Both the position numbers and the translations under genes were made by a program. The notes under the pieces were generated by a model. It was not told where the DNA came from, searched no databases, and saw only the letters and a program-made list of their open reading frames with translations. Below, piece after piece: positions 21,345 through 58,463 of a stretch of DNA of 64,000 nucleotides. Source of the stretch: an uncultured Clostridia bacterium. Its GTDB lineage: Bacteria > Bacillota > Clostridia > Christensenellales > CAG-917. The stretch lies in contig CANQNQ010000004.1 of the NCBI GenBank assembly GCA_947625225.1, forward strand, positions 64,443-128,442. The letters are read 5' to 3'. Within the stretch, counting starts at the first letter, position 1, and the number at the start of each line of letters is the position of its first letter.

Positions 21345-21372
21345 TTGCGTTTTTCTCCTTATTATTAACTAT

Positions 21373-21401: not shown

Positions 21402-21430
21402 TGATAAATTTGCAATGTTTCAAAATTTTT

Positions 21431-21625: not shown

Positions 21626-21631
21626 TTGATT

Positions 21632-21660
21632 ATTATAATATAAATTTCGCCGTCGGTCAA
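21632..21660 (-). promoter_or_regulatory. Candidate promoter of the orphan unit (TTGACC-17-TATAAT)
   Basis: On the minus strand, -35 TTGACC is at 21660..21655 and -10 TATAAT at 21637..21632, with a 17-nt spacer. Confidence 0.55.
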
Positions 21661-21975
21661 GAGTGGACTTCAAGCATTGTTAAGATTTTTTGTAAGCGTC
21701 GTTTTTCCCCGCCTTTTGCGCCGTAAACGCCGGCTTCGCCGCATTTTGCAGCACAAACATCGCAATCTCGAATTTGCGCAAAAACAACGTTTATAACGAC
21801 AAAACGGCATATAAACATCGCCTTTTGCATAAATTTACCAATTCTGCCGCTTGCCGTTTGGCGCAATTCTATTTGTATTTGCGCCCAAGCCCATGCGCGC
21901 ACGATTTGACGACCGCCTACATCTTTACGCAAAAATTTGCAAAAAAATACAATTTGAAAAATATTGCATATTCCC

Positions 21976-22004
21976 TTGACAGCGCGGGGACATTGTGATA
22001 AATT
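21976..22004 (+). promoter_or_regulatory. Candidate pyrG promoter (TTGACA-17-TAAATT)
   Basis: -35 TTGACA is at 21976..21981 and a weaker -10 TAAATT at 21999..22004. The implied leader is about 140 nt. Confidence 0.4.
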
Positions 22005-26562: not shown

Positions 26563-26690
26563 TTTGGCCAAATTTATCGGCAAAAAAGCAACCTTATGGG
26601 ACCTAGTAAGCACAAGTTTTTGCCGATAACGGCAAAAATATGCGCGTTTATGACCTCTTAAAGGAACAATTTTGCCGATAACGGCAAAAT
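26563..26690. repeat. Array of three TTTTGCCG-NTAN(-CGGCAAAA) elements spaced about 50 bp apart
   Basis: Two identical 20-bp hairpin/palindrome copies of TTTTGCCGATAACGGCAAAA lie at 26618..26637 and 26670..26689. A degenerate third copy (TTTGGCCAAATTTATCGGCAAAAAA) lies at 26563..26587. The array sits between the giant-gene terminator and the DUF1858 promoter. Confidence 0.6.
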
Positions 26691-26694: not shown

Positions 26695-26733
26695 TATAAA
26701 AGCAAAGGCAGGAGAACTCCTGCCTTTGCTTTG
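26695..26733 (-). terminator. Intrinsic terminator of the giant gene
   Basis: AGCAAAGGCAGGAG-AA-CTCCTGCCTTTGCT forms a stem of 12-14 bp. On the minus strand it is followed by TTTATAT, and it begins about 17 nt after the stop at 26750. Confidence 0.75.
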
Positions 26734-26749: not shown

Positions 26750-29700
26750 TCATCCGTTGATGGTAACGGTTACCTCCTGGCCGCTTGCCGGATGTACCCA
26801 GCCGAGGCCGTAAGGTATCTTGTCGCCGGCTTTGACAGCGCTTGTGCCGTGGTTGGCGTCCGCGGATTTGGTCAGCACAACTGCGCCGTTGACGTCCACC
26901 AGCGGGCAGTACACGCAGCAGAGCGTATACACAACATTTCTGCTTCCGAACGTCGGCAGTGAGATGTTGCCGCTTGCCGCAGAGAGTATCACCGGGAAAG
27001 TGACGGGGCTGCCGCCGCTGAGCTTACTGACAGTGACTCTGCCCACCCAAGCCACGGGCACATCGCCAATTTGGGACGGGAGCTCATTTTGACCATACGA
27101 GCTGTTTACGGTAACTCCGCTTACTACGCCGCCGGATACTGTCGCCGAAACTGATGTATCCAAATCCATCTTGACGGTTATGGTCTGCTGAGTGCCGATC
27201 TGGATGGTGCCATTACCTGTTTTGCCACTCCAATCCCATTTGCCGTTCTTGGCAGTCCACTCTGCGCTTGCGGGCATAGAGGTGGTCAGGTAGTTGTACG
27301 CAATGTTGGAATCTGTGCCTACGCCTGCGCTCTTGAAGTCAGCCTGCTTCGTGGAATAGTTATATTTCGGGTTCCAACTCTTGAAGTAAACAGTGTACGC
27401 AGAAGGCAGTGACAGAGTCCTTGCATTCTTGGGCGAGACTGTATACGTTCCATCGACCTCGCTGGTGTACTGCTCATAAGCCTCTACACCTTCTTTGGTC
27501 TTGATGTTCCAGGTGGTTGTCGATGTATTGGTGGGATCGGGCTTGTAGGAAAGCGATGTTACCACCTTTCTCTGCACAAGCAGCGGGACGTCGTACTCCT
27601 GCACCACGCCATTGGCGGAGGTGAGGATGGCTGTGACGTAGGTCACGCCGCCCTTCCAGGTCGGGTTGTACTTGCCGTAGTTCCACTCCAGCCTGTTCCC
27701 GTCTGCCGCGCCGACCGTGAAGGTGCGAGAATCATTCATTCCGGTTCCCTGACTGATACTACCGTCGGTGGATCTACTGAAACTTGCAGGATTGAAGTAC
27801 AGCTCGATCGAGTCGGGCATCGTGGGATTGACCAGCGCCTGATCGTCATACGGGTCGATAGCTTCTGTCGCGGTTGCCTCGGTGCCATCTGAGCCATATT
27901 TGGCGTATGCGTCCAAAGATCTGAACGAACCGTCGTTGGGACGTTTCACCGAGCGGTCTGCCACGTACACGTCAAAGGTGAAGCGCTGCGAGCCGATATC
28001 CACGCCGTGGTTGTACTTAGTGTTGTCCACATACGCCCTGGCGATGTAAGGCGTGGCGCTGCCCTTGTAGTTGATGACCACATTGGACAGATCCCATGTG
28101 ACGTCGACATCGACGGTTTTGCCGTTTTCGAGCGTCAGTTTGAGCGTCTTGGGCAGGTACGTGTAAGTGCCAAGCTGTGCTTCATCAAGTTCAAAGTAGG
28201 TGTCTCCATCTATGCCGAATGTGCCGAGCTTGTCCTTCACGTAGCTGACGCCGTCGTCCGCAAGCGAGAAGCGCTGTCCTGTATACGTGCCCGTTCTCTC
28301 GCGGATATCATTGTTGCCGAGCGGGTCGACCACAAATGCGTTGAGCGTTGCATTCCAGAATTCGTTTGAATAGTCATCGGGCATCTTAACGTCTGTCGCC
28401 ACTGCGGAATTCACCAGGACGGGCACGTCGAACGTTGCAGCACAATTGTGGCCATACGAAGTGCTGGTCGCAGTCGCCTTGACGCGCGTGACGCCGCCCC
28501 TGTAGGAGTAATCCGCCGTGGAGTCGTCCCAAGTAAGGTTCATCTTGAGCGTCGTGACGTAGATGAAGATGTACAGCGTGCGCCCGTCTGCAGCGGCATA
28601 GCCGTCCTCGACATCGCCCGTATACTTGCTGTACGTCCTGTTGGACTCGTTGTACGTGTAGTAGACTTGCTGGTTGTTGCGGATGCCCTCCGTATAGGTC
28701 GAGCCGTCACGCGTGTACACCAAGTAGTTGGTGTGGCGCTTCTCCCACGTTGCGCTGTAGGAAGTGATGCCGAAGTTGGCGCTTCTGCCCTCGTTCCACC
28801 AGCTCTCTGCGGAGATGAACTGGCCGTCCACGTAGTAGGTCATCGAGTCTTTGAACATGCCGCTTGCCACCATGCTCTGCGTGTTGTACGGGTCGTACGA
28901 ATACTTGTAGTCGCCGTAGGACATGTCATCGTAGGCGATGTCGCTGTTGTACATGGTCAGCGCGGACGCGCGGATGACAAACTCTACCGTGAAGGGATCC
29001 ATCACCTCGAACGCGCCTGCCTCTTCCGGGTTCTTGCTCCACACATGCACGTTGACGTTGAAGCGGTTGGTGCCGGTGAGGTTCTCTATCTCGTCGATGG
29101 TGGGTACGCCGTTGACAATGGAGCCGTCCTCAAGCTTCTCGCCGTAAGTGATGTAGTACACGTCGGAGCTGTTGTTTGCAAACTTGAGGCGCAGCCTCAG
29201 AGGCATGTTGGCGGGAGTGAGCGTCGCATCCTTGGGTCCCGCATAGGAGTAGCGGTTGTAGAATGTGAACGTCGTGGGCAGATGCGTTGTGCGGCTGTAT
29301 GTGATGTCGATGTACCTGCCGTCCTCGCGCACGCCGCCTTCGAAGCCGACCACGGTTTGCGTTGTGATGTCGCGCCTTGAGGTGTCGGTGTACAGGTACT
29401 TGACCGCATTGCTGAACACCACCTCGCTGTCGAGGATATCTCTGTTGAGGATGGTGACGGGCACGTTGATGCTCTGCTTGACGAGGTAGTACCTCTGCAC
29501 GTTGCCCGAAGTGTACGGGACGTACTTGCCGGTGGCGTTCTTGACATAGTAGCCTTTTGCGTCCGCGATGGCGAACACGGTCTCCAGCATGAAGGAGGTG
29601 TTGCTCGTCTTGGAAGCTATCATCGCGTTGATGGGCGACCAATCCACTTCCACGCTGACCGTGTCGGTGCCGTTTGCAATGAAGTTTCCGCCAAAGCTCG

Positions 29701-32700
29701 AAGTGATCACATTGAGCGGATTGTCGTAGCCGTCGACATTTGCCGTGTAGTTGGGATCGATGATCAGCGAGCGATAGCGCGCGTTCTCGAAGGCGATGAA
29801 CGTCCTGTCCATCACGTACATATTGAACTCGAACTCTTTCTCGTCCTCGGGCAGCCAATTCGCTCCGGTGAAGTCGAATGTCGCCTTGAGCGTGAACACC
29901 TTGCCGAAGTAGTTCGCCACGTTGTCGTAGAACGCCTGCAGGCTGCCGCCCAGCTTGCTGTCGACCTCGGCGAGGTTGTAGTTGACCTTCAGGCTCTTGT
30001 TAGTTTTGCCGTTGATCTTCACATCAAGCGTGGAGCCGTTTGCGAACATATTGCCGAACTCGCCGCCATAGACGTCGTATGCCCAGATGGTATCCTTGGT
30101 GTTGTTGAGCACTTCCGTGATCTCCGCTTTCTCCAGGATCACATGGACGGGCAGGTTGCTGAGGGTCAAGTCGTTTCCGGAGACCGTCAGGTTCATATCC
30201 AATTCGCCGCCCTTTGTGGTGTACTGACCGCTCTTCACCGTCCACGAGAATTTTACGGTGTTGCCGTTGACGGTACCCTGTGTGGGCAAGCCGTCGAAGA
30301 AGTACTCGGCTTTCAGCGTATAGCCAAGCGTGCCCGCGTGCATATCGCCCGTGAAGTCCGCGCCGTGACTATCTTTGAACGCCGCGGCGGAGTTGATGGT
30401 GATCTCCGCGCTGCCTTTTACGCGCTGAGTGCCGTTCTTGCCGATGGGCAGGACGTAACTTCTGGTCATCTTGCCGGCGTTGATCTCCGCCAAGGTGGGC
30501 AATGTCCTGCTGTCCTGCCAGAGGACGGGCACCGTGGTGGACTTCGTCTCGCCGCCTATCATGACCGTAGCGGTCGACGCCCATTGAGGCTTGGCGCCGA
30601 AGATGGTGTACTCGCTGCCCTGATTGTTGAGCGACCATTGGACATCTACGCCGTAGTTTTCAAGATAGAGCTTAGCCGTCAGCTGAGCCGTCTTGACCGC
30701 GTTATTCTCGCCCATGCCGAGCTGATACGTGCGGGTGATGAAGTATTTGCCGTCCTCGTCCTGCTGCACGTTCTCGCTTGAGGTGAGCGCGTTGGAGTTG
30801 CTCCACAGGATCTTCGCGGCGATATCGCCATTGCCCTGCGCGGTGGTGACCGTAGCGGCGTCGGGCATTGACCACGCCGTGTACACGTCGTGCGTGAGCG
30901 TCAGCATGCCGTCTGCGGTGAGGTCGCCGCTGTTCAGCGTGAATGTGCCGCCTGTGACAGATTTTACCGCCGTGACGTTGTAGTCGGGCACGTTGACTTT
31001 GAATTCGGGGAGAGGATGTCCGCCCAAGCTCTCGTTCAGCGTGATCTGCTTGCCGCCGATCGCCACTTTGCCCAACGTCTCATTCCAGCTCTGGATGTAC
31101 GCGATGTACGGGGTGCCCTTGTCGCCGTCGGTGTAAGGCTCGTACTGGTTGGTGTTCTTGTTTAGCTTGTATTCGGGCGTATCGCCGTCGCCTACCTCGA
31201 CGTATTTGCCGTCCACCAGCTTGTATAACTTCGTGTCATAGATGGAGGTGTTCAGCGCGATCGGGAAGGGCTCAACGAGCACTGCGGTGCCCAGCAGCAT
31301 ATTGCCGTCGGTCTTGATGGCGCCCTTCTCGTCGACGTAGAAGTTGCCCCAATACGGCCTGCCGTTGTTGTTCTTGAAGTAGTACTCGGGATGCGCCGCA
31401 TACACCAGCGGATCTATGCCGAACGCCACGCCGTCGATGGTGTGCGTCTGCGCGTAGACGGTCGCGGTGTAGTTGCTTACATCCTGCATCTGCGCCGTCA
31501 GAGCGTTTGTCGCAGCGGCGTCTGTTCCGCCCTTGGTCGTCGCGTAGATATCGCCGCCGTTGAAGAAGCGGACAGACTTGAATTCGTTCTGCTGTTCAAC
31601 GGAGATACGCAGCGAGAAGGTCTGCGCCTCGTACACTCTATGCTTTTCGGGATCCGTGCCGACGTACTTGTGGCCCAAGCCGTCCTCCGTCGCGGTCATC
31701 CTGACCTTGGCGTACACCAGGCTCTGTCCGCTGATGTCCTGCACGGGCTTCTCGATGTTGAAGTTGGAGTTGGTGTAGTACACCACGGTGCTCCAATCGG
31801 GATACATGGTGTGCGTGACCGTATTGCCGTTCTCGTCGGTCAATTCGACGGAAGCCAGCGACTTATAGGCGTCGCTCTTGTACCACAGCGGGTTGAAGGT
31901 ATCCGCGTGCAGGATATCCATCGTCGCCACGCCTCTTTGCGTGAAGCTCTTGACGGTGATGGGCACGTAGAAGGTCTGCTTGCCGCTGTAGTCGGTGCCC
32001 AGATCCACCTTGATGTACAGCGGGTGCTCCTTGGCGTAGGCGTAGCCTTCGTAGGATATCATCGCGTCCTCGTCCAGCATGAACGTCGTGCCGCCCGCGA
32101 CGGTGTTGCTCTTGTGCGCGTCGACGTACTCGCCCTTGTCGTTGAGTATGTACACGGTCTTGGTATCGAACGTCAGCGCGGCGTCGGCGCTCTGCTCTTC
32201 CATGTTCGCGTCGTAGCTGATCTCGCGCGTGACGTAGCTGCCGTCCGCATTGCGCACTCTGAAGCGCAAGGTGGGTTTGTGAGCCGCGTCGGCGGTGAAC
32301 GTATCGCCCACAATGTTGTCAAACTTGACTTCCTTGTACTGATACGGGTCGAAGGTGTAATTTGTCTCCGCGGATGCGAAGGTGTAGCTGTTGACCACTA
32401 TCCTGATCATCACGGTCTGACCGATCATGTTGTCGGAGCCGATGGACTCGCTGCCCTTGAAGCCGGTGGTATGGCTGCCGTCCGCGTTGGTGCTTGTGTA
32501 TTCCACCTTGAACTTGCTTGCGCCCAGCGTGACAGGCACCGTGACGTCGAGACCCTTGTAGTAGTCATACTTGCCATCGCCCGTCTTGATCGCCGCCAAG
32601 GCTTTTTCAAGCTCGGTGGTATCAAACTTGACGTCGAGATCGTCAAACGTATCGCCGTTCAGCGAGTTGCCGTATATGCCCTTCGCCGTCGTCAGCTTGT

Positions 32701-47700: not shown

Positions 47701-50700
47701 TTATAGCGGCAAGGTCCGTATCCGTGATATCCTCGGGATCTGCCGCCGCCATGGCTTCCGCTCCGCCCCCCGCGTCGGGACCGGGCATGGGCGTATCGCC
47801 GCCGATGGCGCTGTTGGCGGTGCCCAACAACTCCTTTACTTTGTCGCCGATCAGTTTGGAGAGACCGACGTTTTCAAGATATATCGCCTCATCGGACAGT
47901 ACGCCGAGATCGACATATATTGATGAACCAAATATATAAATAGCAATTATATTACCTAAATCACCTTCGGTAAGCTCTATCATCAACCTGGTGCGGCTGG
48001 GATCGTCCAGCGCAAGGTTGCCGCCCACCCTGAGGTCGAGCGCATAGAAGTTGTCCTGTGTGATGTCTATGCCAAGTTTGGTCGCAAATTCCACGCCGAA
48101 TGCGTCAAGCAGATTATGAAGTTTCAGCTCCTCGGACTGCGCCTTCAGCGTGAGGTCAAGCGAGAGCTGCGCGTTGAGCGAAATGCTGTCCAGCTTGTCA
48201 AGAGAAGTGTAGATGTCGCGGTTGAAGTCGAGGGGCAGTATCTGCGCCTCTTTGCCGACGCCAAGCGCTATCTTGCTGAGGGTCACGCCGATGGAGAGCG
48301 GCTGTATGCCAACGCTGAAGTTTATCCTGTAATCGCTTGCATTGGACTTCCACAGCAGTTGCAGATAGCTGTTTGTGGTGTCAAGCGCGGGCATCTGATC
48401 GGGAGTGAGGCTCTTGCCCGTGATCATATTGACCAACGCCGTCACAAGACCCGTGGCGAAGTTGATCTTGAGACCTTCCTCGCCAAGCGCTATGCGGCTG
48501 ATCAGCTGAGGCAGGAGCTTCAGCAGGGTGTCCACTGTGCTGCCGCCGCTTGCGCCGCTCTGCGGATCGTCTGCGGAGTATGCCTCCGCGCTGCCGCCCG
48601 CCGCGGGATCCGACGTGGAGTTGCCTCCGCCTATGCTCTTGATGAGGTCGCCGAGGTTGAAGTTGCTTATCGCAAGATGGAAGCCGTCGGACAGGTCGAT
48701 ATACATCGTGCTGGAAGGCACGTCGTTTACCTCGCCGTTGTACACAAGCCTCACCATCAACAAAGCGTGCTCGCGCCTTGCCGCGTCGTCTTCAAGACCC
48801 ATTATGGTCTCGATGTCCTCGTTGTACAGCTCTATGGCGATGCCGGAGTGGGACAGTATGTAGTCAATGTCGAACAGGTCGCCTATGGCGTAGATCTGCT
48901 CGCCCTCCTTGACGCTTGCAGCGTTGACTTTGACGTACATATCGCCGTCAAGCACATATACGTCGCCGTCCGTCTTGTCGACGGGCACGAAGCTTCTGCC
49001 GTCGGGCAGGTACTTCTTGACGTACAGTTTTGCGGTCGTATCGGGTTGAGTGGTGCCGTCCGTGTTGCTTATGACGGGACGTTGTACAACGCCGCCCGCG
49101 TCACGCTGCGCCGCCTCATAAAGCTGCGCGCCGTCGCTGAGCCAATACAGCTCCGCATAACGCGCCGAGACTGCCGCGAGGTCGGAGTCGTCCACGGGGA
49201 CAAACCTTGCGTTGTCGCGGATATCCACGGTGACGTTGGGGTTGAAGCGCGCGTTGAGCGCAATGCGGAAGCCGATGGCCTGCTCCACGGAGCTGGGCAC
49301 CGTGTATTGCATCACCAATCTCTGGATGAAGTTCTTTATTTCAACGTCTTTGACGTCTACGAGCGCGTTGATCCAATCGCCTATCTGCCAATCGGGATAC
49401 ACGCCGTTTTCGGCGCCAAAGGATATCGTGCCCTGCAACTCTGCCGATACAGTGGGCATGATGAGGTCGCCCGACGCATTGAACAGGTTGAGGTCGGTGT
49501 AAGATTCGACAAGCGAATTCTCATCGAAGTAGTCGTGGATCTTGTGTGGCTTGCCGCTTCTCGTGACGAAGCAGTCGGTCAGTGCGCCAACAGTGATTTT
49601 GGTGTTGCCAATGCTCAGCTTCAGCGAGCCTGTGGACTCGCCGTAGCTGTTTTTGACTGCGCCTTCAAGCACAATGCCGTCCTCTGTGCCCTTCTTGAGC
49701 GCGTCGAATGCGACGTCAAGGTACAGCTCGAAGTCCTGCATGGATATGCCGACCAGCTTGTACAGCGCGTCGACAATGCCTTCCATCAGCTCTATGCGCA
49801 GATGCTCGGAGGACAGCGTAACAAGCACGTTGATAAGCACGTCTATCGCCGCGGCGTCATCGCCGGGAGCCGCCGCCATCGCTTCTACGCCCTCAGCGGC
49901 CTGTCCGTTGAGGTTGACGACGGTGTCCTTTGCGACAAGACCCATGATGAGGCCCATCAGGTCGATGTCGGTCGCAAATTGATTGAAGCCGAAGTTGCTA
50001 AGGTCCGCATACAACATGCCGTCCACGTAGTACAGACCTATAAGCAGGCTCTTTTCGCCCCACTTGTTGCCGATAAGCTCGATGACAAATGCGGATTGAT
50101 TGTATGTGGTAAGGATATCCGTCTTGCCGACAAGATATTGGACGACGGGCGCAAGGTCAAGTCTGCCCGAAATGCGCAACTCATATCCAAAGTCTATGGC
50201 GTCGTCAAACACTATATCCAGATCCTGGAGATCGACGCCGCCCTGATCCGCCTTGAACTCTATGCCCAGATTGAGGTCGAGCGAGACGAGAGGATTGTTG
50301 TAAATGTCAACGTATGTATCCGCGTCTTCGGGCAGGTAGTTGCTCACGGTGTCGTGCAGACCCGCGTCAATGCCCTCTATTGCAAGGTTGAGGTCCATCA
50401 GATCGCCAAGCTTCACGCCGAAGCCCACTTGCACGCCGGGCAGGTTCAGACCCTTGGAGAAGTCAAGCCACAGCTGAGCGGAGGATTCGCCGCTTGTGAT
50501 CATGGGGTTGAGCTGTATGCCGCCAAGGTTGCCGACCAGCTCCTGCAATGCGCCGAATGTGAGCGCAAGTTTGATGACGTTCTGTCCAAACGAAACTTCG
50601 CTCAACATGCCCGCGACGATGCTGAGGATGCTGTCAATGGACATGCCGCCGCTCTCTTCGGGAGCAGCCGCATATGCCTCCTCTGCGCTGTCTTCGCCGC

Positions 50701-53347
50701 CGACGGCGCTTGCAAGCTGAGGAACAACGTCCCTGAGGTCGATCTTTACCTTGTCCAGCTTAAGCGCGGAAAGTTGCGCGTCAACGTACACAAATCCGTC
50801 CTGCAGATACACAGCAAGCAACGGTTTGTTTGTGCCCGCCTCGGACGGTTTGTTTGTGCCCGCCTCGGACGGTTTGTTTGTGCCCGCCTCTTTAAGTTCA
50901 ATGGCTGCCGAAGAGGTAAGCAGCGCGGAGATATTAAATCCGCTGCCCGCCACAAGACCGGACAGGTCGATGTCCGCGTCAATGTTCATCTCAATGCCGG
51001 TATCTATGCGCCCAAGCTCAAGCAACAACGCCACCACGATCTTGTCGTAGGCGGTGCCGATGTTTGCATTGTGCAAGATGTCTTCGATCGGGATGTCCAC
51101 TCCGCCCAGCGCCGCTTCCAGCGTTGAGATGTCCAGCTTGATGGAAGTGCCCGCGGTGAGATGGAACAGGTCTGCGTTGAGCACGCCGTCCCTGGTGATG
51201 GACAGATATTTTGCCGCATTGTCCTCTACTTCCTTAAACTTCTGCTTCCATATATCCTTGTTGGAAAGCGAACCGAAGGTTAGCTCGCCGCCCAGGTACA
51301 GCGTGGACACCAGCGGGTTTTCGGGATCGCCAAGCTGCAGGTTGACAAGCTCCAACGTCTTGGACTCGCCCACGCCGTTGTTCTTGTAGACCAATGCCAC
51401 GGGATCGTCGCCGTTGACGATGGGTATCTTTGCGCCGTCAAGGTCGCTGCCGGGGGTGAACACCATGCCGAAGATGGCGTTGAGTATGGTCTCGGTCAGC
51501 TCGACTTTGAGACCGGTGATGTTGAATATGTCTCCGTTTTTGTACAGAGTGGTGCTGTCAAGTATCATCCTGACAAGGGTCAGCACGTCGACGGTGCCGT
51601 CTCCCTCGTCCGCGGCGATGGCGTCGTGCGGAATGATTATGTCCGCGTTGCCAACCAGCCTGTCATACTCGGCGGCGGAAGCGCCCAAGCCGTTTATGGC
51701 GCCCACAACGGTGTCGAACAGGTCGGTGACCGCGCCTTTGAGCAGCTCGTTGATGTTGATGTCCGTCACCTTGAAGTAGGTGTTGCTGTCGCCAAGCAGA
51801 CCGCTTGCGTCAATGTACACGCAGTTGGTCTCGCCCGAATAGTACGCGCCAACGCGCGGCTTTGTGCCGTCGCCCGTGGCAAGCTCCGCCATAATGCGGG
51901 TCTTGGAGTAATCCTTGGTGTTTATCTCGCCCTGCACCGTCAGCGTGACGGTGATGGTCTGTCCAAGAGAAGTGATCGCCGTGTTGAAGAGGGGCTGCAG
52001 GCTTCCCAACATGTCGGGATCGAGGTTGTTTTGCAAAATATTTGTGAACAGCGAACCGAACGAACCCAATGCGTCGTTTATGGTAAACTGCTTGTTTGCA
52101 AAGTCTATTTCGAGGTTTACGCTGCCGTCGATGGTCAGCAGCGAGTAGTTTTCGTCCATCTCCTTTATCTTTTGATAGAAGGACACGGCGTTGCCTTCCT
52201 CGTCAAGCTCCATGCGGGAGCCGAGGAAATCCACAAGTTTAAGGTCGGGCGTGCCGACAAATCTTGCCTTGGACTCGCCCAGCATTATGCCGATCTCCTC
52301 CTGGAATCTGCCGTACTTTTCCTCGAGATCGGGCAGACCGTATGAATTGAGGTTGAGACCGATGTCCGTGTACATCTGCTGCAATTTGCCGTCCTGGATG
52401 TCCGCGGTGATGTTGAGCGCAATGCCGCTGAGGCTGGCAAGTTTGCCAAGGTCGAGGCCGATGACGTCCTCCACAAGGCCGATGATGTCCTCGGGAATGA
52501 CGCCCTGCAACAGAGGAAGAATCGTTGCGACAAGCGACAAGTCCACGGGAAGCTCTATAACGGTGTGACCGTTGCCGTAATCATAGTAGTGGCTGGAGGA
52601 ATTTGAAAGCAGCAGACCGACGATCAATTGCTCTATCGTCATGTCGATAAGGTCGATCTGCATATTGGGCAAAAGACCCTTGATGAGGTCGTTGAGGTTG
52701 TAGTTGAACAACTTGTTGTACACGATGTCGGAGATGTTGAGTTGGTGGAAAGCGTTGGCAAAAGCGCCCACAAACGAGGGTACGTCGAGGTTGTCCGTCC
52801 ACAAGACGTGCACGCCTTCGTCGCGCTTGATGCCTCTCAGATCCGCAACAAGCTTGCCCTCGAAGTAGTAGATGCCCAAAACCAATTGACCCCGACCCGC
52901 ACTTGCCATGGCGGAGGCGGAATCCTTGTCGATGATGCCGCCCACAAAGTCGTCGGGCACAAACTTCCTTATCTCTATCAACAGCTGGTTTTCTTCAGCG
53001 TCGGCGTCGCCCATGGTGTCGAGGTGACCCGCAAATCTCAGCACGGACAAGCTCTCATAAGCGGACTTTGAAAAGCCCAACACAAATGAGGTGTCAAAGT
53101 TGAGGTATCTGGCGTCCTTCTCCTCGGCGGAGGCGGCCATCGCCGCGTCCTTCAGCATTATCCACGCCTGCTGGGAGTCAATGCGCGACTGGTCCTCAAC
53201 GTCGGTGTTGGGGCCTCCGCCGCTCTGTCCCGGAATGACAGGGGGTGCGCTGGGATTGTTATCCGTTGGATTACATGCGACCAAAGCGACGGTAAGCACC
53301 ATCACCAGGATAAGCATCAACACAACTGCGATTTTTTGTCTTCTCAT
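26750..53347 (-). CDS. Giant predicted lipoprotein, 8,865 aa, novel modular architecture (putative surface fibril/adhesin; function unknown)
   Basis: The reading frame is open for 26.6 kb without interruption. The start is taken as ATG 53347, with GGAGG 7 nt upstream. The N-terminus MRRQKIAVVLMLILVMVLTVALVAC-NPTDNN is a lipoprotein signal with an L-V-A-C lipobox. Module-end and linker motifs recur at the protein level without nucleotide repetition, which argues for real coding. The gene has its own promoter and terminator. Confidence 0.9.
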   Translation of the reverse strand: MRRQKIAVVLMLILVMVLTVALVACNPTDNNPSAPPVIPGQSGGGPNTDVEDQSRIDSQQAWIMLKDAAMAASAEEKDARYLNFDTSFVLGFSKSAYESLSVLRFAGHLDTMGDADAEENQLLIEIRKFVPDDFVGGIIDKDSASAMASAGRGQLVLGIYYFEGKLVADLRGIKRDEGVHVLWTDNLDVPSFVGAFANAFHQLNISDIVYNKLFNYNLNDLIKGLLPNMQIDLIDMTIEQLIVGLLLSNSSSHYYDYGNGHTVIELPVDLSLVATILPLLQGVIPEDIIGLVEDVIGLDLGKLASLSGIALNITADIQDGKLQQMYTDIGLNLNSYGLPDLEEKYGRFQEEIGIMLGESKARFVGTPDLKLVDFLGSRMELDEEGNAVSFYQKIKEMDENYSLLTIDGSVNLEIDFANKQFTINDALGSFGSLFTNILQNNLDPDMLGSLQPLFNTAITSLGQTITVTLTVQGEINTKDYSKTRIMAELATGDGTKPRVGAYYSGETNCVYIDASGLLGDSNTYFKVTDININELLKGAVTDLFDTVVGAINGLGASAAEYDRLVGNADIIIPHDAIAADEGDGTVDVLTLVRMILDSTTLYKNGDIFNITGLKVELTETILNAIFGMVFTPGSDLDGAKIPIVNGDDPVALVYKNNGVGESKTLELVNLQLGDPENPLVSTLYLGGELTFGSLSNKDIWKQKFKEVEDNAAKYLSITRDGVLNADLFHLTAGTSIKLDISTLEAALGGVDIPIEDILHNANIGTAYDKIVVALLLELGRIDTGIEMNIDADIDLSGLVAGSGFNISALLTSSAAIELKEAGTNKPSEAGTNKPSEAGTNKPLLAVYLQDGFVYVDAQLSALKLDKVKIDLRDVVPQLASAVGGEDSAEEAYAAAPEESGGMSIDSILSIVAGMLSEVSFGQNVIKLALTFGALQELVGNLGGIQLNPMITSGESSAQLWLDFSKGLNLPGVQVGFGVKLGDLMDLNLAIEGIDAGLHDTVSNYLPEDADTYVDIYNNPLVSLDLNLGIEFKADQGGVDLQDLDIVFDDAIDFGYELRISGRLDLAPVVQYLVGKTDILTTYNQSAFVIELIGNKWGEKSLLIGLYYVDGMLYADLSNFGFNQFATDIDLMGLIMGLVAKDTVVNLNGQAAEGVEAMAAAPGDDAAAIDVLINVLVTLSSEHLRIELMEGIVDALYKLVGISMQDFELYLDVAFDALKKGTEDGIVLEGAVKNSYGESTGSLKLSIGNTKITVGALTDCFVTRSGKPHKIHDYFDENSLVESYTDLNLFNASGDLIMPTVSAELQGTISFGAENGVYPDWQIGDWINALVDVKDVEIKNFIQRLVMQYTVPSSVEQAIGFRIALNARFNPNVTVDIRDNARFVPVDDSDLAAVSARYAELYWLSDGAQLYEAAQRDAGGVVQRPVISNTDGTTQPDTTAKLYVKKYLPDGRSFVPVDKTDGDVYVLDGDMYVKVNAASVKEGEQIYAIGDLFDIDYILSHSGIAIELYNEDIETIMGLEDDAARREHALLMVRLVYNGEVNDVPSSTMYIDLSDGFHLAISNFNLGDLIKSIGGGNSTSDPAAGGSAEAYSADDPQSGASGGSTVDTLLKLLPQLISRIALGEEGLKINFATGLVTALVNMITGKSLTPDQMPALDTTNSYLQLLWKSNASDYRINFSVGIQPLSIGVTLSKIALGVGKEAQILPLDFNRDIYTSLDKLDSISLNAQLSLDLTLKAQSEELKLHNLLDAFGVEFATKLGIDITQDNFYALDLRVGGNLALDDPSRTRLMIELTEGDLGNIIAIYIFGSSIYVDLGVLSDEAIYLENVGLSKLIGDKVKELLGTANSAIGGDTPMPGPDAGGGAEAMAAADPEDITDTDLAAIIELGQGSLQLTIGQAVIAGIIAAVLTQIPSVNFNFDNLLNTLDLDLILNALLQIDETGVMARLDLGSNLIDLSLGIDNIDVITGNSDPLYDELESEVSQKISQKDVLTGDAGDRDVYYLVKETAAGDGAPEQYILKKSFDGTTYTRVDENEYVDHFVDRSEVRVVTIDLKLFIEYSTGATYRYIADAQELSAYDESERYMRRVSDGRFVQDKGGQYVRTPFDLNAVLDFVFGLLPLDGIAGTMLPSYHFNNNDGILSADKSTFPLKQLLDQLGLDLLFGHAIYDGLMLHITGKLDLDKLGLGDLSTLDFDSIPTFDTNTILGALEARVSLDFTYETAVQPSDRSFVDFYLIDRVIYADLSGIGGPQVKMSLQRIMDLINSASGSAEEALAAAPEGSSGVTNTLQMILNTLVKSIALQSRTWTTNKALWRIEAINLLFNSNMFYKMFTSETFKNVFGATLNIPAENLELVEDGDYASGLYVTLADNKHFEGFTSNGALTLKMLLAFANFNAPSEDKIVPYATEMTLGLDVGVGFEDPGAGSLLDPDAQMNYIDFEQYLDTILALANGADKGDNEGEQYVSLTASGMLYFNSADVATYDIGSMGMLSNLLGDLMIQLQTAGQYNSGIGLKIAANIDLAHVDLAKLFEASDADFLTKIKNFVNSEGTDLSTLELAIQLVKTNEQGRFARYDNGEPIVLAGIYLNAGSLYIDGTGIATSAEQYARVDDFEAYARRIYREGLSGVFGEEASAAADEITDPIDVETRNALIALVYSDEAIKIQLTKALIAIVLGSFVDGLGDIADVFENMELSVDFEIGADEYKPLAELETTDPDLFNKFKKEDLFRQEIYKYYEEETFKEYIDDGDMSDYYVAIGANGNYSFYPVDSTTLWQKDGEEDYTAVEYKGDVVTGIESGDYFVLDNAVYNKVQFVTKGKDTTASSDLYLGIDVAGGGADGKTHLALRNYGMYFGMEKAVEGAEGGLTQTEYIPTTIYVNDDAHNLHTFVSYNGSYSQAKLEDRLFGYVREPEADLSNDKDYLYYRTVRSYTDLSEFSLGVALQMGTLSLGLRIGAIDIGIGGGGDQLLPDYIRDGVAHSYTTSDGKEHGYIRDEYNALETKPEIEEVPVTKLSDSIITLEFSVELNLDITSGALDFGMIFAGILGELAGVRLDVPNTAIGYSSAHFRLDFALTLDMHSFSDLELKLELVQVTSTGFDLLWAGIYFFNGGLYFDLSNVFGIPKMSMSDINVETVLRSLFDMIRGVGSGSSSGDEALASANAAVGGMGAGNNNIDYDNPDLALLLFLNKNDLALVIGDVLFELVLEYLPDDLLGFPIRDLFYEEINGNLSVELNTEDDIDLSLSATLGLPGDRYYSTATMTKEQNKPGELTADLLAVYNDLTDITTNTRYYVFVEDTAGTYIMGGNGRYIRPLMPNDVTDGQTLYKKYRLSDKDGAFEVYEVLSNSAMEELAASPIELEGEKVYNIFYCVDGAAANITTVSDYGKHDMNLQLGLAIKDLGVRFSNSRTSVINSEDLDGYTGFGDLDHVTLNEIIDITTDFKPGDDNSVDLSSVFELLGFDLDPESVLISALGDDGGDVERSIRLRLDVDVQLLGLANYARTHLITVENQDGEMGFLDVVELLRAVFDGQINILDHVTELLNYIDLSLILETKGSGDEDYHTLVGIYLSSGSYKKLEADNLNEDSADYVKPADRYDHYYKAGFGNYKYVVNEGVGSYVILTAEEKSQYIEAVDGAYKQDENGNYVEIGEGEEYEGTRYAVNNAYVAPADRYTYDSVNCYQNDNGNYMHTEGGLYVDLTYFNLPSLEVPSNMVNDLLGSLGGTSAGGAAEAMAAADTQADAAIDLPLLSGENATIADYIRGLVYGFSITSKYISILLKPDYINTILTLIMGDDALQFDASEFVNYPSLYLYTDMSKFRYVDEDKLLNSVVEAYDELYKQYKESVSDDEARVNALRDMLRAPGYVELQSLLNASRQRFSVTTYTKDTDKGMYYVDSDGGMALKADMSEIDKANYDTKMSEGEKDANGNPYAYYDVTATVTYIKVGDAYVAYTDANRAQIDAAEKDKEYETIGIEMPKLYVQAADGNYTEAEGLYLAEELEARNPLLKLNLYLWNHSIGLSLNFPQLGAIPYKYVLGNDPKAQELDYPADARFVDVVEDVFDSVDKASDGMGAYIEDYYTADSFDATKYLKDPRYIENDNKYFPINADTLYIQDEGGQYVKVTDGAKTFPDFLTEMVNKHTVYYVDCRTEDSAAFVQLRRPYIYKRYDNNAKSKRQLAVGETKADGTEYSEGEYSVRVMQESVIQKPDFTDEQYNDYMYDDYLSVGKLNFVAITLRGSMFVNAGKIYLDYATYNEFYKQLHEGGEVPDETLKGIAYKKYHGGYQAVTDESEIKALKANNQLYVLANSGLDARLGINEALGDVLGTVFGQLEGNFQVTDDATLRLYFEIKINLSFEISIVPLRFFLRDLDVAIDAWMEQNDKLATGGYVTADDRASGNYEGALLDGSLTHMLGIYYSHDEHTGKSAIYLDLEWLLGKDAKIAVDMSDYSLEDILNGVLDGVLDNDLVSTQEAIPAADFDPYSVYKEGHGRTDIGLFINIFTGAIGVDITAGFIGAIFNSLLPDLSLAGSSISDLLPNLQAYLKLDLYPYALTLGGLLLNEDGTKPILDMGIQIEGLNGEMGKSSYIAFGDEADIKTKQTGYDYIFYYANFYHDLENGNFGKNGDGKDYVELTKVGDQEYYVDAEGAYKYEDNVMSLIGEEAYIDTRYSQYTDAPEMRYSKSGSVMVEVKDGIGGRYAFGSEHLTGYDANLYTVYNGVNTELKDVPGLNLTTSVYRDIVNKDGFVNFTNNLMVLDRNNNNRYIEVNKLQLQGFTGVGNLQYVKVADINNETYKTTVHDPIVANYATPVTIDGEQYLPLDTNGNGYTDMNEADLVGPEVIAYKKVDDFANYTQALSLDLEDIISGAKEFEITEMLGGLNTVELDLSLAIEMRLTDVINWTHQMTQFFGAEIEDFVYMLVTSLYEEGKEGGEGAEPFESTIGFDIDLKAYLPINNLIAQLTAPAEDRDIIAALKGTKVYLEVTYDTNFHGDDTATAYIWLEFDETTGKLNLMMDVTDIAEIVGFGDFFSYAKAEGIDIAGLLSGLGVGGASEAYTSADEDVDTGILPENIFDIINLIVGRLLVANDFITVGLNETLLGDLIAMFSDTDNEIIAGVMQYMPKLFTSMGADTSGLTINLYGEAPSIDLNMGFQMGTDYYLTFKEYNDMYGENGQRNKGDDLPAGMAHYHLEGGEYVLCTDTSCTREDAKYVLVMNDEYALIGYAYPNWKGTAYTLNAATGAFEEAADGAYLKLGDFGFGVHITDLGVAVNKDFSVDKNVVMYQSVLRDEQGYVVDDKGTRLKDLNGEEYKDPYVGINDLKVELSTSINVSLYGDPTADDTTIELGQLLDMILGLVGGGAGSAIKGSAFNINITNALGKKEGTFLTLDIKAYLDLKDFNIAARIDLLKHSVNGDGTGVVLGIYLDKDGNVGIDLSGILGPTAKLKLGGIKLGGSTGPLGSMLSGLLGDLMGTDAAATSSVDALAAAGDIDTVKQLMKEYAYLMILVNPQKILLQLNADIINAIYSKVMQLRGEDPDVWQQDLLPDIGDIMLKLDASGKKTAMGLTLRLSDALYVGLDIPGVTMLRKNYASADFFAAGENTGKIDFDDGTWVNLGTLDIASLIGGDGVSVDKLFGEDGMTLPTIGIQMGVELTLNASGLTNKDAKYDNSFAGWVTNLLKDTLAGSSLFGTYKLVENMSEDELRRAGDKRYNLDAASGAYLESADGKYGFVMADFNLVLPNGAVTLKVDLQADLNIMALITYGIGGILFSDLQLTLSMGSPVNKEIAKIYYLGSSRLNNGNLTYESSAGKFDSTHAYNDAIFIDLTGLGLGKIKFQGISGLLGVSPYQSATTASAAMSAADGFSAADSIGSADGTSSSGEAGAAGGLTVNLGIENGKVSISINKGLLNSVFGMLGLALPFELPIEQIDLSLLTGDSGISQIAVNARLDNEGTSLSATINPININFGSGILKTKDLIEEVKVGYAGLTLSNTAGTSNLIQNILDGIGLYAKIEIQNKVWSAVATNPRDESTRSFYTETKTLLRGQRVYHDGSMTKDNPGYILKLDLEATRGTAGSDKGGGWTTNGGSTVVSVPVLFGGNNLWIGNQTNNLIVGLGGNPVGDAIMQAIGNGAILPMDLGSMMGSGKLFDFVSGSDGDNDQYAVPAAGNSGVTGWDSGKTSYSYPLQLTNLIKSVELDLFNSNGYWPYYSSMKSSSMHNNGMGNISVKVELNKDAYNELILMVDVLLLNMINGKSHSNPDGVYAFDVSKVDTDTSKDATTYSGAAYTFKKHNPDGSTSDVTVSGHLDAVFDELDYLLQHDATTEQKVALIEPLARSIPAAFIKFILEGVNVTAVGDLWKGNVLSSLVTDTIGNLSRLISNILPLPFASGDISPSLNIYIDVDPQKSDYGITDGGITMHPGIQAIEIFVNGKKNGVGTSMLYNNAATTTVSSFKNRTVTSTGASNYDGTNKTNKTTTSLNNAWDYFMLSLTPYGNESSSVQDPMLGFLDSDSANLTDTSGVTVPQAIYITNPATGAGYLSANGQANSNIGTFDRLTDNYFYTNPTKFPRVANVVYGKKDGGNTQNSFLAGSTAAPGTSIVWDASTIDYTPSNSSEPRIGGFVYGYALNTVMYAIPVYITNNYQYMNSVKEAVAGNQSKAIQLDMKQDSSTYNTKLPDEVVVSLRNDTSNADVRFGTYLEDAEGNMAYAILITAGTGINNNWEKATATKGTDSKGASVDSGHTFHSSVMSTVTYNNVEYNLYPAYIAGLAKNSADGSYITQDIGGVTYYFILKDQFVDKKVPAGTFKWNLDDFAFNWSGAGSRGDQGENLTVGFTYQWGFATPVSGKLGIPVKNYYIASLTGLSGNGITLDGNSALKLGSTQGKDGYEFTLSIDAINMTSDISDLVAYLNKLTTAKGIYGNSLNGDTFDDLDVKFDTTELEKALAAIKTGDGKYDYYKGLDVTVPVTLGASKFKVEYTSTNADGSHTTGFKGSESIGSDNMIGQTVMIRIVVNSYTFASAETNYTFDPYQYKEVKFDNIVGDTFTADAAHKPTLRFRVRNADGSYVTREISYDANMEEQSADAALTFDTKTVYILNDKGEYVDAHKSNTVAGGTTFMLDEDAMISYEGYAYAKEHPLYIKVDLGTDYSGKQTFYVPITVKSFTQRGVATMDILHADTFNPLWYKSDAYKSLASVELTDENGNTVTHTMYPDWSTVVYYTNSNFNIEKPVQDISGQSLVYAKVRMTATEDGLGHKYVGTDPEKHRVYEAQTFSLRISVEQQNEFKSVRFFNGGDIYATTKGGTDAAATNALTAQMQDVSNYTATVYAQTHTIDGVAFGIDPLVYAAHPEYYFKNNNGRPYWGNFYVDEKGAIKTDGNMLLGTAVLVEPFPIALNTSIYDTKLYKLVDGKYVEVGDGDTPEYKLNKNTNQYEPYTDGDKGTPYIAYIQSWNETLGKVAIGGKQITLNESLGGHPLPEFKVNVPDYNVTAVKSVTGGTFTLNSGDLTADGMLTLTHDVYTAWSMPDAATVTTAQGNGDIAAKILWSNSNALTSSENVQQDEDGKYFITRTYQLGMGENNAVKTAQLTAKLYLENYGVDVQWSLNNQGSEYTIFGAKPQWASTATVMIGGETKSTTVPVLWQDSRTLPTLAEINAGKMTRSYVLPIGKNGTQRVKGSAEITINSAAAFKDSHGADFTGDMHAGTLGYTLKAEYFFDGLPTQGTVNGNTVKFSWTVKSGQYTTKGGELDMNLTVSGNDLTLSNLPVHVILEKAEITEVLNNTKDTIWAYDVYGGEFGNMFANGSTLDVKINGKTNKSLKVNYNLAEVDSKLGGSLQAFYDNVANYFGKVFTLKATFDFTGANWLPEDEKEFEFNMYVMDRTFIAFENARYRSLIIDPNYTANVDGYDNPLNVITSSFGGNFIANGTDTVSVEVDWSPINAMIASKTSNTSFMLETVFAIADAKGYYVKNATGKYVPYTSGNVQRYYLVKQSINVPVTILNRDILDSEVVFSNAVKYLYTDTSRRDITTQTVVGFEGGVREDGRYIDITYSRTTHLPTTFTFYNRYSYAGPKDATLTPANMPLRLRLKFANNSSDVYYITYGEKLEDGSIVNGVPTIDEIENLTGTNRFNVNVHVWSKNPEEAGAFEVMDPFTVEFVIRASALTMYNSDIAYDDMSYGDYKYSYDPYNTQSMVASGMFKDSMTYYVDGQFISAESWWNEGRSANFGITSYSATWEKRHTNYLVYTRDGSTYTEGIRNNQQVYYTYNESNRTYSKYTGDVEDGYAAADGRTLYIFIYVTTLKMNLTWDDSTADYSYRGGVTRVKATATSTSYGHNCAATFDVPVLVNSAVATDVKMPDDYSNEFWNATLNAFVVDPLGNNDIRERTGTYTGQRFSLADDGVSYVKDKLGTFGIDGDTYFELDEAQLGTYTYLPKTLKLTLENGKTVDVDVTWDLSNVVINYKGSATPYIARAYVDNTKYNHGVDIGSQRFTFDVYVADRSVKRPNDGSFRSLDAYAKYGSDGTEATATEAIDPYDDQALVNPTMPDSIELYFNPASFSRSTDGSISQGTGMNDSRTFTVGAADGNRLEWNYGKYNPTWKGGVTYVTAILTSANGVVQEYDVPLLVQRKVVTSLSYKPDPTNTSTTTWNIKTKEGVEAYEQYTSEVDGTYTVSPKNARTLSLPSAYTVYFKSWNPKYNYSTKQADFKSAGVGTDSNIAYNYLTTSMPASAEWTAKNGKWDWSGKTGNGTIQIGTQQTITVKMDLDTSVSATVSGGVVSGVTVNSSYGQNELPSQIGDVPVAWVGRVTVSKLSGGSPVTFPVILSAASGNISLPTFGSRNVVYTLCCVYCPLVDVNGAVVLTKSADANHGTSAVKAGDKIPYGLGWVHPASGQEVTVTING
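26753..35755 (-). other. C-terminal ~3,000-aa region of the giant protein: Thr/Asn/Tyr/Gly-rich, with recurring Ig-like W...GG...VPV units
   Basis: At least 10 degenerate units match the pattern [VIL]xW(D/S)xS...(K/R)GG...V.A.....Q..(D)VP(V/L)xV. Examples are VDVTWDLSNVVINYKGSATPYIARAYV...FTFDVYVADRSV, MNLTWDDSTADYSYRGGVTRVKATA...FDVPVLVNSAVA and RLEWNYGKYNPTWKGGVTYVTAILTS...YDVPLLVQRKVV. The protein ends ...CCVYCPLVDVNG...EVTVTING with no LPXTG. Confidence 0.55.
35756..52900 (-). repeat. Protein-level array of about 13 large degenerate modules (about 260-745 aa each) in the giant protein
   Basis: Each module ends with a motif like ..(L)(L/V)xGIY(L/Y)xxGxLYxDLSxxG.. followed 25-60 aa later by a low-complexity linker with the core [AS]E[AE]x[AS][AS]A[DP]. 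Linker cores lie at about 51590-51700, 50657-50695, 49862-49909, 48569-48589, 47726-47761, 46505-46558, 45449-45475, 43886-43915, 42148-42225, 39950-39992, 38212-38270, 36936-37003 and 35756-35870. After each linker comes an amphipathic ..ID.LL.LL..L...I.L.....L.I.L...L..A.....-type segment. Confidence 0.7.
50821..50890 (-). repeat. Perfect 24-bp tandem repeat, 2.9 copies, in frame (EAGTNKPS x3)
   Basis: ACGGTTTGTTTGTGCCCGCCTCGG is repeated at 50821, 50845 and 50869 on the plus-strand text. It encodes KEAGTNKPSEAGTNKPSEAGTNKPLLAVYLQDGFVYVD. Confidence 0.95.
53273..53347 (-). other. Lipoprotein signal peptide and lipobox of the giant protein
   Basis: It has an RRQK n-region, a 17-residue hydrophobic core and an LVAC lipobox. 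The Cys25 codon is at 53275..53273, followed by a Pro/Gly/Asn-rich tether (NPTDNNPSAPPVIPGQSGGGPN). Confidence 0.8.
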
Positions 53348-53417
53348 ACATCTTCCTCCAAACCCACACATACGCCTTAACGTGTACGCAACGTACGCAT
53401 AGATTTTATACGGTAGT

Positions 53418-53446
53418 ATTATACTCCCGAAAATCCCCTTTGTCAA
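53418..53446 (-). promoter_or_regulatory. Perfect-consensus sigma-A promoter of the giant gene (TTGACA-17-TATAAT)
   Basis: On the minus strand, -35 TTGACA is at 53446..53441 and -10 TATAAT at 53423..53418, with an exact 17-nt spacer. This predicts a 5' UTR of about 64 nt. The ORF-track TTG start coincides with the -35 element. Confidence 0.65.
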
Positions 53447-53619: not shown

Positions 53620-53758
53620 ATTATCTGCGCGTCGGCACGCCGCGCCCGTCCTCTTTTTGACGTTTGAAACGCGCTTCCCGCCGCGCCGCTTCCGGCGTAA
53701 AAACTCTTAATAAATTTGCCGTATTGCGGCATAAAGCCGCAAAACAAACTTATTTTTA

Positions 53759-53787
53759 TTGACGGTGTCGTCCGCGCATGGTATACT
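53759..53787 (+). promoter_or_regulatory. Candidate promoter of the DUF1624 acyltransferase gene (TTGACG-17-TATACT); leaderless mRNA predicted
   Basis: -35 is at 53759..53764 and -10 at 53782..53787. The ATG at 53794 starts 7 nt after the -10 element, and there is no Shine-Dalgarno sequence. Confidence 0.5.
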
Positions 53788-53793
53788 CAAAAT

Positions 53794-58386: not shown

Positions 58387-58463
58387 AACCGCACTTTATC
58401 CATGCAATATACGTAGCACAACATCGTTTTGCGCTGTATTTTGGTGATTTTGAGATGGGCGGA

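Follow-up and report, generated by a model that had tools for sequence, protein, structure and literature searches.

The window, by which we mean the whole stretch of 64,000 nucleotides (nt) analysed here (contig CANQNQ010000004.1 of an uncultured Clostridia bacterium), carries on its minus strand one giant gene, which encodes a putative lipoprotein of 8,865 amino acids (aa) with a modular proximal (N-terminal) region and a compositionally different distal (C-terminal) region. The gene, its signals and the main parts of its product are located as follows.

26750..53347, minus strand: coding sequence of the giant protein, 8,865 aa plus stop codon, 964.7 kDa, isoelectric point 4.3
53418..53446, minus strand: promoter of the sigma-70 type, TTGACA-17-TATAAT, matching 12 of 12 consensus positions
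53355..53359, minus strand: ribosome-binding site GGAGG, 7 nt 5' of the ATG, read from the sequence
26699..26732, minus strand: intrinsic terminator, a perfect 15-base-pair (bp) stem followed by UUUU
53273..53347, minus strand: lipoprotein signal peptide, aa 1-24, plus Cys25 (lipobox LVAC), from the sequence and the alignment of orthologues
35630..53050, minus strand: proximal region rich in Leu and acidic residues, aa ~100-5906, holding 13-14 degenerate alpha/beta modules, from composition and profile evidence
26753..35629, minus strand: distal Thr/Asn/Tyr-rich, Leu-poor region, aa 5907-8865, delimited by a composition switch and by the end of the last module

The open frame (26750..53446, minus strand) is unbroken, and the translation from the ATG at 53347 contains a single terminal stop and zero N. 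An in-frame TTG at 53446 falls within the -35 hexamer of the promoter, so that 53347 is the real start. The terminator hairpin, which a simple terminator scan missed, folds with -27.6 kcal/mol (z = -4.6), and none of 200 shuffled sequences was equally stable. The GC content of the gene is 0.559 and its GC content at third codon positions (GC3) is 0.76, compared with a GC3 of 0.78 for rpoB, rpoC and secA and of 0.58 for the AT-rich islets of the window; its relative synonymous codon usage (RSCU) correlates with that of the same three core genes at r = 0.955, and codon usage is even along the whole gene. We found no direct DNA repeats of at least 30 bp within the gene and only one short tandem repeat, so that repeat collapse or mis-assembly is not a concern.

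50821..50890, minus strand: perfect tandem repeat of 24 bp in 2.9 copies, encoding (SEAGTNKP)x3 in the linker ahead of the third module

This tandem repeat is a likely site of length polymorphism.

The N-terminus of the protein, MRRQKIAVVLMLILVMVLTVALVA followed by the cysteine of the lipobox, is composed of a charged n-region (MRRQK, with K/R among residues 1-7), an h-region without charges (IAVVLMLILVMVLTVALV) and the lipobox L-V-A-C, with the cysteine at position 25. This layout agrees with the general pattern of bacterial lipoproteins (charged n-region, hydrophobic h-region, lipobox [LVI][ASTVI][GAS]-C and Cys at 15-35) and, by our reading, satisfies the classical PROSITE lipobox rule. A lipobox of the form [LF][VA]AC[NDGS] is kept in ~43 orthologues, and A24 and C25 are invariant in alignment A2. 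The signal peptide is also the sole strongly hydrophobic segment of the giant protein; no hydrophobic segment is present at the C-terminus, which reads ...EVTVTING. The protein as a whole has a net charge of -600, with Asp and Glu together making up ~14% of the residues. Its composition switches near aa 5900: before this point, Leu accounts for 9-15% and the sequence is strongly acidic, after it Leu falls to 5-7% while Thr, Asn and Tyr rise. An earlier, sequence-only reading of this DNA had described one intact gene with its own promoter, ribosome-binding site and terminator, coding for a lipoprotein of close to 1 MDa. The open frame, the promoter, the GGAGG and the hairpin were all verified, the computed mass of 964.7 kDa is in line with the estimate, and the LVAC/Cys25 signal was borne out by its conservation.

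The distribution of the gene was assessed by scanning one genome for each GTDB species with a sequence pattern, the first 1,500 residues being the reference, and 49 loci were found to encode relatives of this part of the protein. All of them belong to metagenome-assembled genomes (MAGs) from gut or rumen, labelled Christensenella sp., Clostridia or Clostridiales bacterium, Firmicutes bacterium CAG:475 or CAG:238, or Candidatus Limadaptatus, a few bearing evidently mis-binned names; there was no cultured isolate among the 49, and the cultured Christensenella and Catabacter gave no match. These lineage labels are quoted as they stand in the records, and the assignment to Christensenellales is our reading of them. 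Each genome has one gene, and the sole genome with two loci (L030 and L044) carries consecutive pieces of the same gene. At 41 loci, a frame of at least 4,000 codons starts at the conserved lipobox and is still open at the end of the fetched DNA, and 37 of these 41 frames are collinear with the window protein from aa 1 to ~4700, with an identity of 25-50% throughout. One homologue, on a 46-kb contig (L001), consists of 1,160 and 8,183 residues separated by a 10-N scaffold gap (L001 13483-13518), which adds up to ~9,340 aa.

For the last 1,200 aa, an exhaustive HMMER search of 1.84 billion representative proteins returned only 43 matches, the longest of 3,708 aa. Each match is collinear with the query, and almost all reach to ~20-35 residues from its C-terminus, usually with their own C-terminal ends. 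We read them as fragments of orthologues; together they span ~aa 6350-8865, and one of them (P0006) possibly extends from ~5,100 by our estimate. A search of 5.8 billion clustered proteins yielded three fragments only, 1,145-1,353 aa in length, and a profile of 42 orthologous N-termini recovered only the same three. Owing to its size, the giant family is largely absent from searchable protein catalogues, which hold it only as truncated pieces. Phase variation, considered for two database fragments that end near aa 1,145-1,160, was rejected: the orthologous open reading frame (ORF) of L013 runs on past the end of one of them, which lies on a 4.8-kb contig and in all likelihood was truncated where that contig ends, whereas the second fragment stops at the 10-N gap.

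A gene of this length might be an assembly artefact, a chimera or a decaying pseudogene, and two homologues appear to be broken: the one in the long-read MAG L019 (CP091723.1, a 1.65-Mb chromosome) lies in three frames of 1,085, 2,645 and 1,332 codons, and the one at L004 meets a stop after 2,368 codons. However, the ORF in the window has neither an internal stop nor an N and lies in non-repetitive DNA with uniform codon usage, and 41 independent assemblies from different studies carry the open frame of at least 4,000 codons, collinear as described above. Furthermore, the split of L001 coincides with its scaffold gap, and the frame breaks of L019 fit uncorrected long-read (nanopore) indels, which they probably are, rather than pseudogenisation. 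We give an artefact or pseudogene almost no credence.

Between species, the N-terminal 1,100 residues are 26-44% identical, compared with 64-73% for the flanking esterase and condensation genes. The giant protein diverges much faster than its neighbours, and this fast divergence, like the extreme acidity, is consistent with surface exposure. As judged from these loci, the family is conserved and single-copy in uncultured Christensenella-like gut Clostridia. The core-like codon usage, together with collinear orthologues in conserved synteny in 49 species, supports a gene native to its genome rather than a recent import, in agreement with the long-term residence that had been proposed for it. 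The guess that the host genome is small is plausible, since a gene of this size would take up ~1.6% of a genome like the complete 1.65-Mb chromosome of the related MAG.

To compare the protein with curated families, ten overlapping tiles of 1,000 aa were scanned against Pfam, NCBIfam, PHROGs and PADLOC. The only curated family over threshold was the immunoglobulin (Ig)-like domain Big_4 in the distal region; nothing credible was found for the ten tiles in NCBIfam, PHROGs or PADLOC, and searches of the PDB by sequence (both halves of the protein) and by profile (alignments A2, A5 and A4) gave nothing meaningful. A BLASTP comparison of the protein with itself revealed no repeats at 1e-3. Neither Pfam nor NCBIfam had matches for SLH, LysM, CWB2, GW or choline-binding repeats, and the FIVAR/GA and RTX/HemolysinCabind families of Pfam gave nothing at E < 1 on the ten tiles. 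There are 0 matches in the giant protein to LPXTG, the signal for anchoring by sortase, and 0 to GGxGxD, the motif of RTX adhesins secreted by a type I secretion system (T1SS), in place of which the Sec/signal peptidase II signal is present. Counts of calcium-binding, RTX, glycosylation-sequon, RGD and YD motifs showed no enrichment. A search of viral contigs yielded no relatives and the PHROGs and PADLOC scans were empty as well; nothing marks the giant protein as one of a phage or defence system. We found no description of its family in the literature.

These scans agree with the sequence-only reading in that the LPXTG, SLH, LysM, CWB2, GW, choline-binding, FIVAR and RTX hallmarks are missing, and the profile scan of the tiles showed that the protein is no mere string of adhesin domains already known. 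The statement that no domain can be named has to be corrected for the single Big_4 domain at aa 8390-8429, which is above the Pfam threshold. The featureless picture was likewise refined, into 13-14 cryptic modules in the proximal part and, over the last 1,200 aa, a chain that at the level of fold is conventionally Ig- and fibronectin type III (FN3)-like.

The proximal modules, delimited with a hidden Markov model (HMM), occupy the following positions.

Modules, minus strand, aa: 118-177 (partial), 441-638, 768-963, 1041-1211, 1487-1671, 1735-1928, 2147-2329
Modules, continued, minus strand, aa: 2465-2701, 3029-3223, 3671-3808, 4314-4533, 4922-5112, 5337-5529, 5702-5906

The modules are marked by a recurrent hairpin motif, 'LLGIYYxDGxLYxDLS', which first emerged from the alignment with database fragments and from a search by regular expression and iterative HMM. 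When an alignment of 38 species was cut into tiles of 150 columns and every non-overlapping pair of tiles was compared by hhalign, 78 of the 1,830 pairs reached a probability of at least 90%; in the control with reversed templates, 0 of 900 pairs reached 50%, the maximum being 25%. An HMM built from the modules of other species only recovered 13 strong modules in the window protein, with independent E-values of 1e-13 to 1e-30, plus the partial one. Three of the 13 (4922-5112, 5337-5529 and 5702-5906) lie in a region outside any HMM training, and the final module ends at aa 5906, exactly at the composition switch. Module starts are spaced 250-650 residues apart, and the gaps between modules are taken up by Tyr-rich, hairpin-like inserts whose length varies from one species to the next. 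In the window protein, such Tyr-rich inserts with recurring 'G-x-Y-x-x-V'-like hairpins were noticed at aa ~1390-1487, 2740-2810, 3560-3670, 3880-4260 and 4580-4700 (window ~39250-49180), and they have no match to a Pfam repeat family. In the homologue L043, the site that corresponds to aa 1155 is longer by ~100 residues.

A low-confidence AlphaFold2 model of aa 1-1150 was used for its secondary-structure pattern only. In this model, four modules aligned by the independent HMM have their elements in the same order, namely a five-strand meander, a helix, a linker, a helix, a beta-hairpin and a helix, and the hydrophobicity pattern of an alignment of 139 module instances agrees with this order. 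A Pfam scan of each of the 139 instances revealed no recurrent family, and the module profile matched nothing in the protein database at E <= 1e-3. By these comparisons the proximal module is new, being absent from the Pfam, NCBIfam, PHROGs, PADLOC and PDB searches.

The modelled order of elements recalls bridge-like lipid-transfer conduits with a repeating beta-groove (AsmA/TamB/VPS13), and by analogy the modules could form a long hydrophobic groove. Like TamB, YhdP and VPS13, the giant protein is very long, begins with a predicted membrane anchor and consists of degenerate repeats of about five strands followed by a helix or loop; its strands, furthermore, alternate hydrophobic and polar residues. 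However, we detected no homology to these proteins: there was no Pfam match to AsmA, TamB or DUF3971 at E < 1, and hhalign against a single E. coli TamB template, which is a weak test, gave probabilities of 0.2% for alignment A2 and 0.1% for A5. The high helix content (about one-third of each module, in secondary structure taken from the low-confidence model), the extreme acidity and the distal Ig-like chain set the protein apart as well. The host lineage, moreover, is not known to have a second membrane, such as an outer membrane to which these Clostridia could bridge. A lipid conduit is very unlikely.

Each module is accompanied, ~40 residues past its hairpin, by a short linear motif, (S/G)-[ED]-A-[MLFYV]-[STA]-A-[AS]-D, which is located in a G/S/D-rich linker of variable length (examples are AEAMAAADP, SEAVSAADE and DAMTAADG).

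47738..47758, minus strand: linker motif AEAMAAADP, aa 1864-1870, as an example read from the sequence
Equivalent sites of the linker motif: near aa 575, 890, 1155, 1588, 2269, 2626, 3146, 3719, 4458, 5035, 5461 and 5834

A loose regular expression found 11 sites, compared with 1.24 +/- 1.1 in 500 shuffles; the total rises to ~13 when two less strict copies and the copy of the last module (5834) are counted. The sites are kept at their positions across species, for example site 3146 in 33 and site 1155 in 25 of 38 species, and in the 139-instance module alignment the Ala of 'EA' is the only column that is conserved at 90% or more. Because it is conserved inside linkers that otherwise drift freely, the motif suggests itself as a candidate recognition site; we know of no nameable counterpart.

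One bolder proposal is that the proximal 5,900 aa constitute a new kind of envelope organelle, a stalk of 13-14 modules whose linker motif is recognised by a dedicated processing, modifying or wall-cross-linking enzyme; we put this forward tentatively and consider its chances modest at best. If true, the protein would be a surface polyprotein, or a fibre stapled at many points, that is peculiar to the Christensenella-like lineage of the gut, and it could underlie aggregation and interactions with partners or the host. As an explanation for the whole protein, such a polyprotein or stapled fibre, in which the motif is cut by a dedicated protease to give about a dozen subunits or is modified or cross-linked to the wall at many points, overlaps with the lipid-anchored surface fibre that we favour below, and would alter how the protein works. 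The strong conservation of the motif in variable linkers at ~13 sites, in up to 33 of 38 species at the same position, speaks for it, as does the conservation, close by, of genes for candidate modifying enzymes (the membrane acyltransferase, the stand-alone condensation-domain protein and the esterase). On the other hand, the locus has no linked protease gene, the motif may be no more than a piece of the structure, for instance a short helix that packs against the module, and the synteny may reflect only slow genome rearrangement. Cleavage or modification is purely hypothetical here, and we judge this explanation to be rather unlikely.

In the distal region, two features were located.

26753..30352, minus strand: modelled C-terminal 1,200 aa (7666-8865), ~12 Ig/FN3-like beta-sandwiches, AlphaFold2
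28061..28180, minus strand: Big_4 (PF07532) Ig-like domain, aa 8390-8429, Pfam E = 2e-5, 24.5 bits compared with a cut-off of 22.1

AlphaFold2, given a multiple sequence alignment (MSA) of 44 sequences, modelled the last 1,200 aa as an all-beta structure of ~12 domains of ~100 aa each, with a mean predicted local distance difference test (pLDDT) score of 83.1. The best Foldseek matches were multi-Ig/FN3 ectodomains (Sevenless, Robo2, CEA, cadherins and contactins), SpyCEP and multi-Ig/BACON/FN3 phage proteins, with low TM-scores, as expected of a flexible chain. Big_4 was found in the orthologue fragments P0004 and P0008 too, and weak internal similarity connects aa 7812-7949 with 8426-8567 and aa 8243-8333 with 8528-8615. 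Tandem Ig/FN3-like beta-sandwiches are thus predicted for the C-terminal part and were not found in aa 1-5906. From the composition of the region and this weak internal similarity, we infer that the entire distal ~3,000 aa form a chain of ~30 beta-sandwich domains. Neither Foldseek nor the library searches picked out a lectin, enzyme or toxin domain in the distal model.

A polymorphic toxin or contact-dependent effector of the Rhs/CDI/MafB kind, displayed on a long stalk, would share the giant size and the surface location, and the 'YYxDGxLY' of the module hairpin superficially resembles YD repeats. But nothing more specific points to such an effector: the hairpin motif recurs every 250-650 aa and not every ~20 aa, there were 0 matches to the YD core in the giant protein, and no RHS, YD or toxin families of Pfam were matched. 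The extreme C-terminus, moreover, is conserved among orthologues, with alignments reaching to ~20-35 residues of the end, and not hypervariable, and no immunity-like small ORF lies downstream, where the terminator is followed by the gene of an Fe-dependent alcohol dehydrogenase. A toxin is highly improbable.

Read from sequence and predicted structure, the giant protein would represent an undescribed family of lipid-anchored surface fibres or adhesins, an explanation that we hold with somewhat better than even confidence. The preprotein would be exported via Sec, its signal cut by signal peptidase II and Cys25 modified with diacylglycerol, as predicted from the lipobox, so that the N-terminus would be tethered to the cytoplasmic membrane on its outer face. 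The acidic, modular region of 5,800 residues would then form a long stalk reaching through the cell wall and beyond it, and the beta-sandwich chain of ~3,000 residues would face outward, where it would touch mucus of the host, food particles or partner microbes, or form a protective coat. The linker motif could be a recognition site for processing, modification or wall attachment. If the domains were extended at ~4 nm each, which is our own estimate, the molecule could be well over 100 nm long.

Several points weigh against this explanation. No ligand-binding or catalytic tip domain was identified in the giant protein, and the label 'adhesin' derives from its likeness to other beta-sandwich-rich surface proteins. 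Giant adhesins are not typically held by a lipid at the N-terminus, and a stalk in which alpha/beta modules are combined with disordered linkers is not a known design. For the fold of the N-terminal two-thirds, AlphaFold2 reached a pLDDT of no more than 35.6 on aa 1-1150, from an MSA of 4 sequences, and the beta-sandwich nature of aa 5907-7665 is suggested by composition only.

Some of the same observations would suit a non-adhesive, polyanionic scaffold or coat of the envelope, comparable to an S-layer or a teichoic-acid substitute, which would organise or protect the wall of these small-genome gut Clostridia. A net charge of -600 with ~14% Asp plus Glu, a gene that is single-copy in every related species found and has a strong, consensus promoter, and the lack of a recognisable lectin or ligand-binding tip would all fit such a coat. 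However, the protein has no SLH, CWB2 or other wall-binding repeats, a lattice could hardly be built on one lipid anchor for each megadalton, and fast divergence combined with a distal Ig-like chain is more typical of exposed fibrils. We consider the coat unlikely, and retain the lipid-anchored surface fibre or adhesin as the best explanation.

Upstream of the giant gene and divergent from it lies a gene for a membrane acyltransferase.

53716..54687, plus strand: membrane acyltransferase, HGSNAT_cat / Acyl_transf_3, Pfam E = 4.5e-25

Its true start probably lies inside this ORF, and in 46 of 51 related loci a homologue of it precedes the giant gene on the other strand. Further upstream, up to position 59357 of the window, follow genes for a membrane protein of 369 aa, a BD-FAE esterase, a stand-alone condensation-domain protein and a multi-pass membrane protein of 297 aa, the two multi-pass membrane proteins belonging to no known family. 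The esterase and condensation genes are present in ~21 related loci, and many relatives also carry a ~650-aa protein without a Pfam match and a bPH_2 protein, both of which are missing from the window. The conserved neighbourhood may reflect functional coupling or only a slow decay of gene order. Downstream, past the terminator, are the genes for the Fe-dependent alcohol dehydrogenase, a DAGK/YegS-type kinase and CTP synthase. The genes secA and rpoBC also sit in the window and are unlinked to the giant gene in relatives.

Two exact copies of the palindrome TTTGCCGTTATCGGCAAA (26619-26636 and 26671-26688, 52 bp apart; chance expectation 0.04) are located between the terminator of the giant gene and a promoter-like site (26530-26503) of the Fe-dependent alcohol dehydrogenase gene, for which they look like operator sites. 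Two AT-rich islets (18000-22000 and 58000-64000) have a GC content of 0.42-0.49, compared with ~0.56 elsewhere, and contain ORFs mostly without a Pfam family, among them a 352-aa protein that combines a zinc-ribbon-like N-terminus with an acidic stretch of low complexity. Another ORF of the lipoprotein type, 425 aa long (62405-63682, minus strand) and also in an AT-rich islet, starts with MKQTKHIRMLLIAVLVPVMAFALVAC and has the same LVAC lipobox as the giant protein and no Pfam family.

In the human gut community, few members are as heritable and as closely associated with health as the Christensenella-like Clostridia, most of which are uncultured and have small genomes. Here, such a cell would devote ~1.6% of a ~1.65-Mb genome to one conserved, strongly promoted surface protein of ~1 MDa. 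This genome share, together with the conservation and the promoter, makes it likely that the protein shapes how these bacteria meet their host, food particles, phages and partner microbes. The new module and the linker motif provide concrete handles for structure prediction, metaproteomics and work with antibodies or cryo-electron tomography.

Giant proteins from metagenomes were presented by West-Roberts et al. (bioRxiv 10.1101/2023.11.21.568195), including those of Omnitrophota and an RCC1-type from Oscillospiraceae of gut Clostridia. As described in that preprint, these giants either have many transmembrane regions and SecA-like domains or consist entirely of RCC1, Listeria-Bacteroides, YG or dockerin repeats without anchors, and a term search of the preprint found no mention of Christensenella-like taxa or of lipoproteins. 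The likeness to the present family is in the very long genes from uncultured bacteria, gut Clostridia among them, which are largely unannotated and obscured by the fragmentation of assemblies. The present family differs in having one lipobox, none of those repeats and another module.

The present protein can also be compared with surface proteins of small-genome relatives of the Bacillota, the Mollicutes P97/P102 families, which are lipid- or membrane-tethered, as is predicted for it. In Mycoplasma hyopneumoniae, the members of these families are adhesins that are processed by endoproteolysis. Their cleavage motifs lie in disordered acidic linkers and would be a possible analogue of the EA-x-x-AAD motif described here. 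Unlike the present protein, P97/P102 proteins are 10 to 50 times smaller and have no sequence relationship to it, and cleavage in our case is purely hypothetical.

The closest resemblance in kind is to giant adhesins with Ig-like repeats, such as Ebh/Embp of Staphylococcus, SiiE of Salmonella, MpIBP of Marinomonas and LapA of Pseudomonas. Like these, the present protein is of megadalton size, predicted to be secreted and held to the cell by one end, acidic and fast-evolving, with a long extender and, as modelled, distal beta-sandwiches. Unlike them, it would be anchored by an N-terminal lipobox, with no C-terminal transmembrane segment, LPXTG or outer-membrane retention module, and it is devoid of FIVAR/GA and RTX domains, of a T1SS signal and of near-identical tandem repeats; two-thirds of its length are made up of a module that is absent from Pfam, NCBIfam and the PDB. 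As far as sequence comparison can tell, the protein belongs to no described family and defines a new one, with a new architecture among giant surface proteins, although in kind it is like the giant adhesins.

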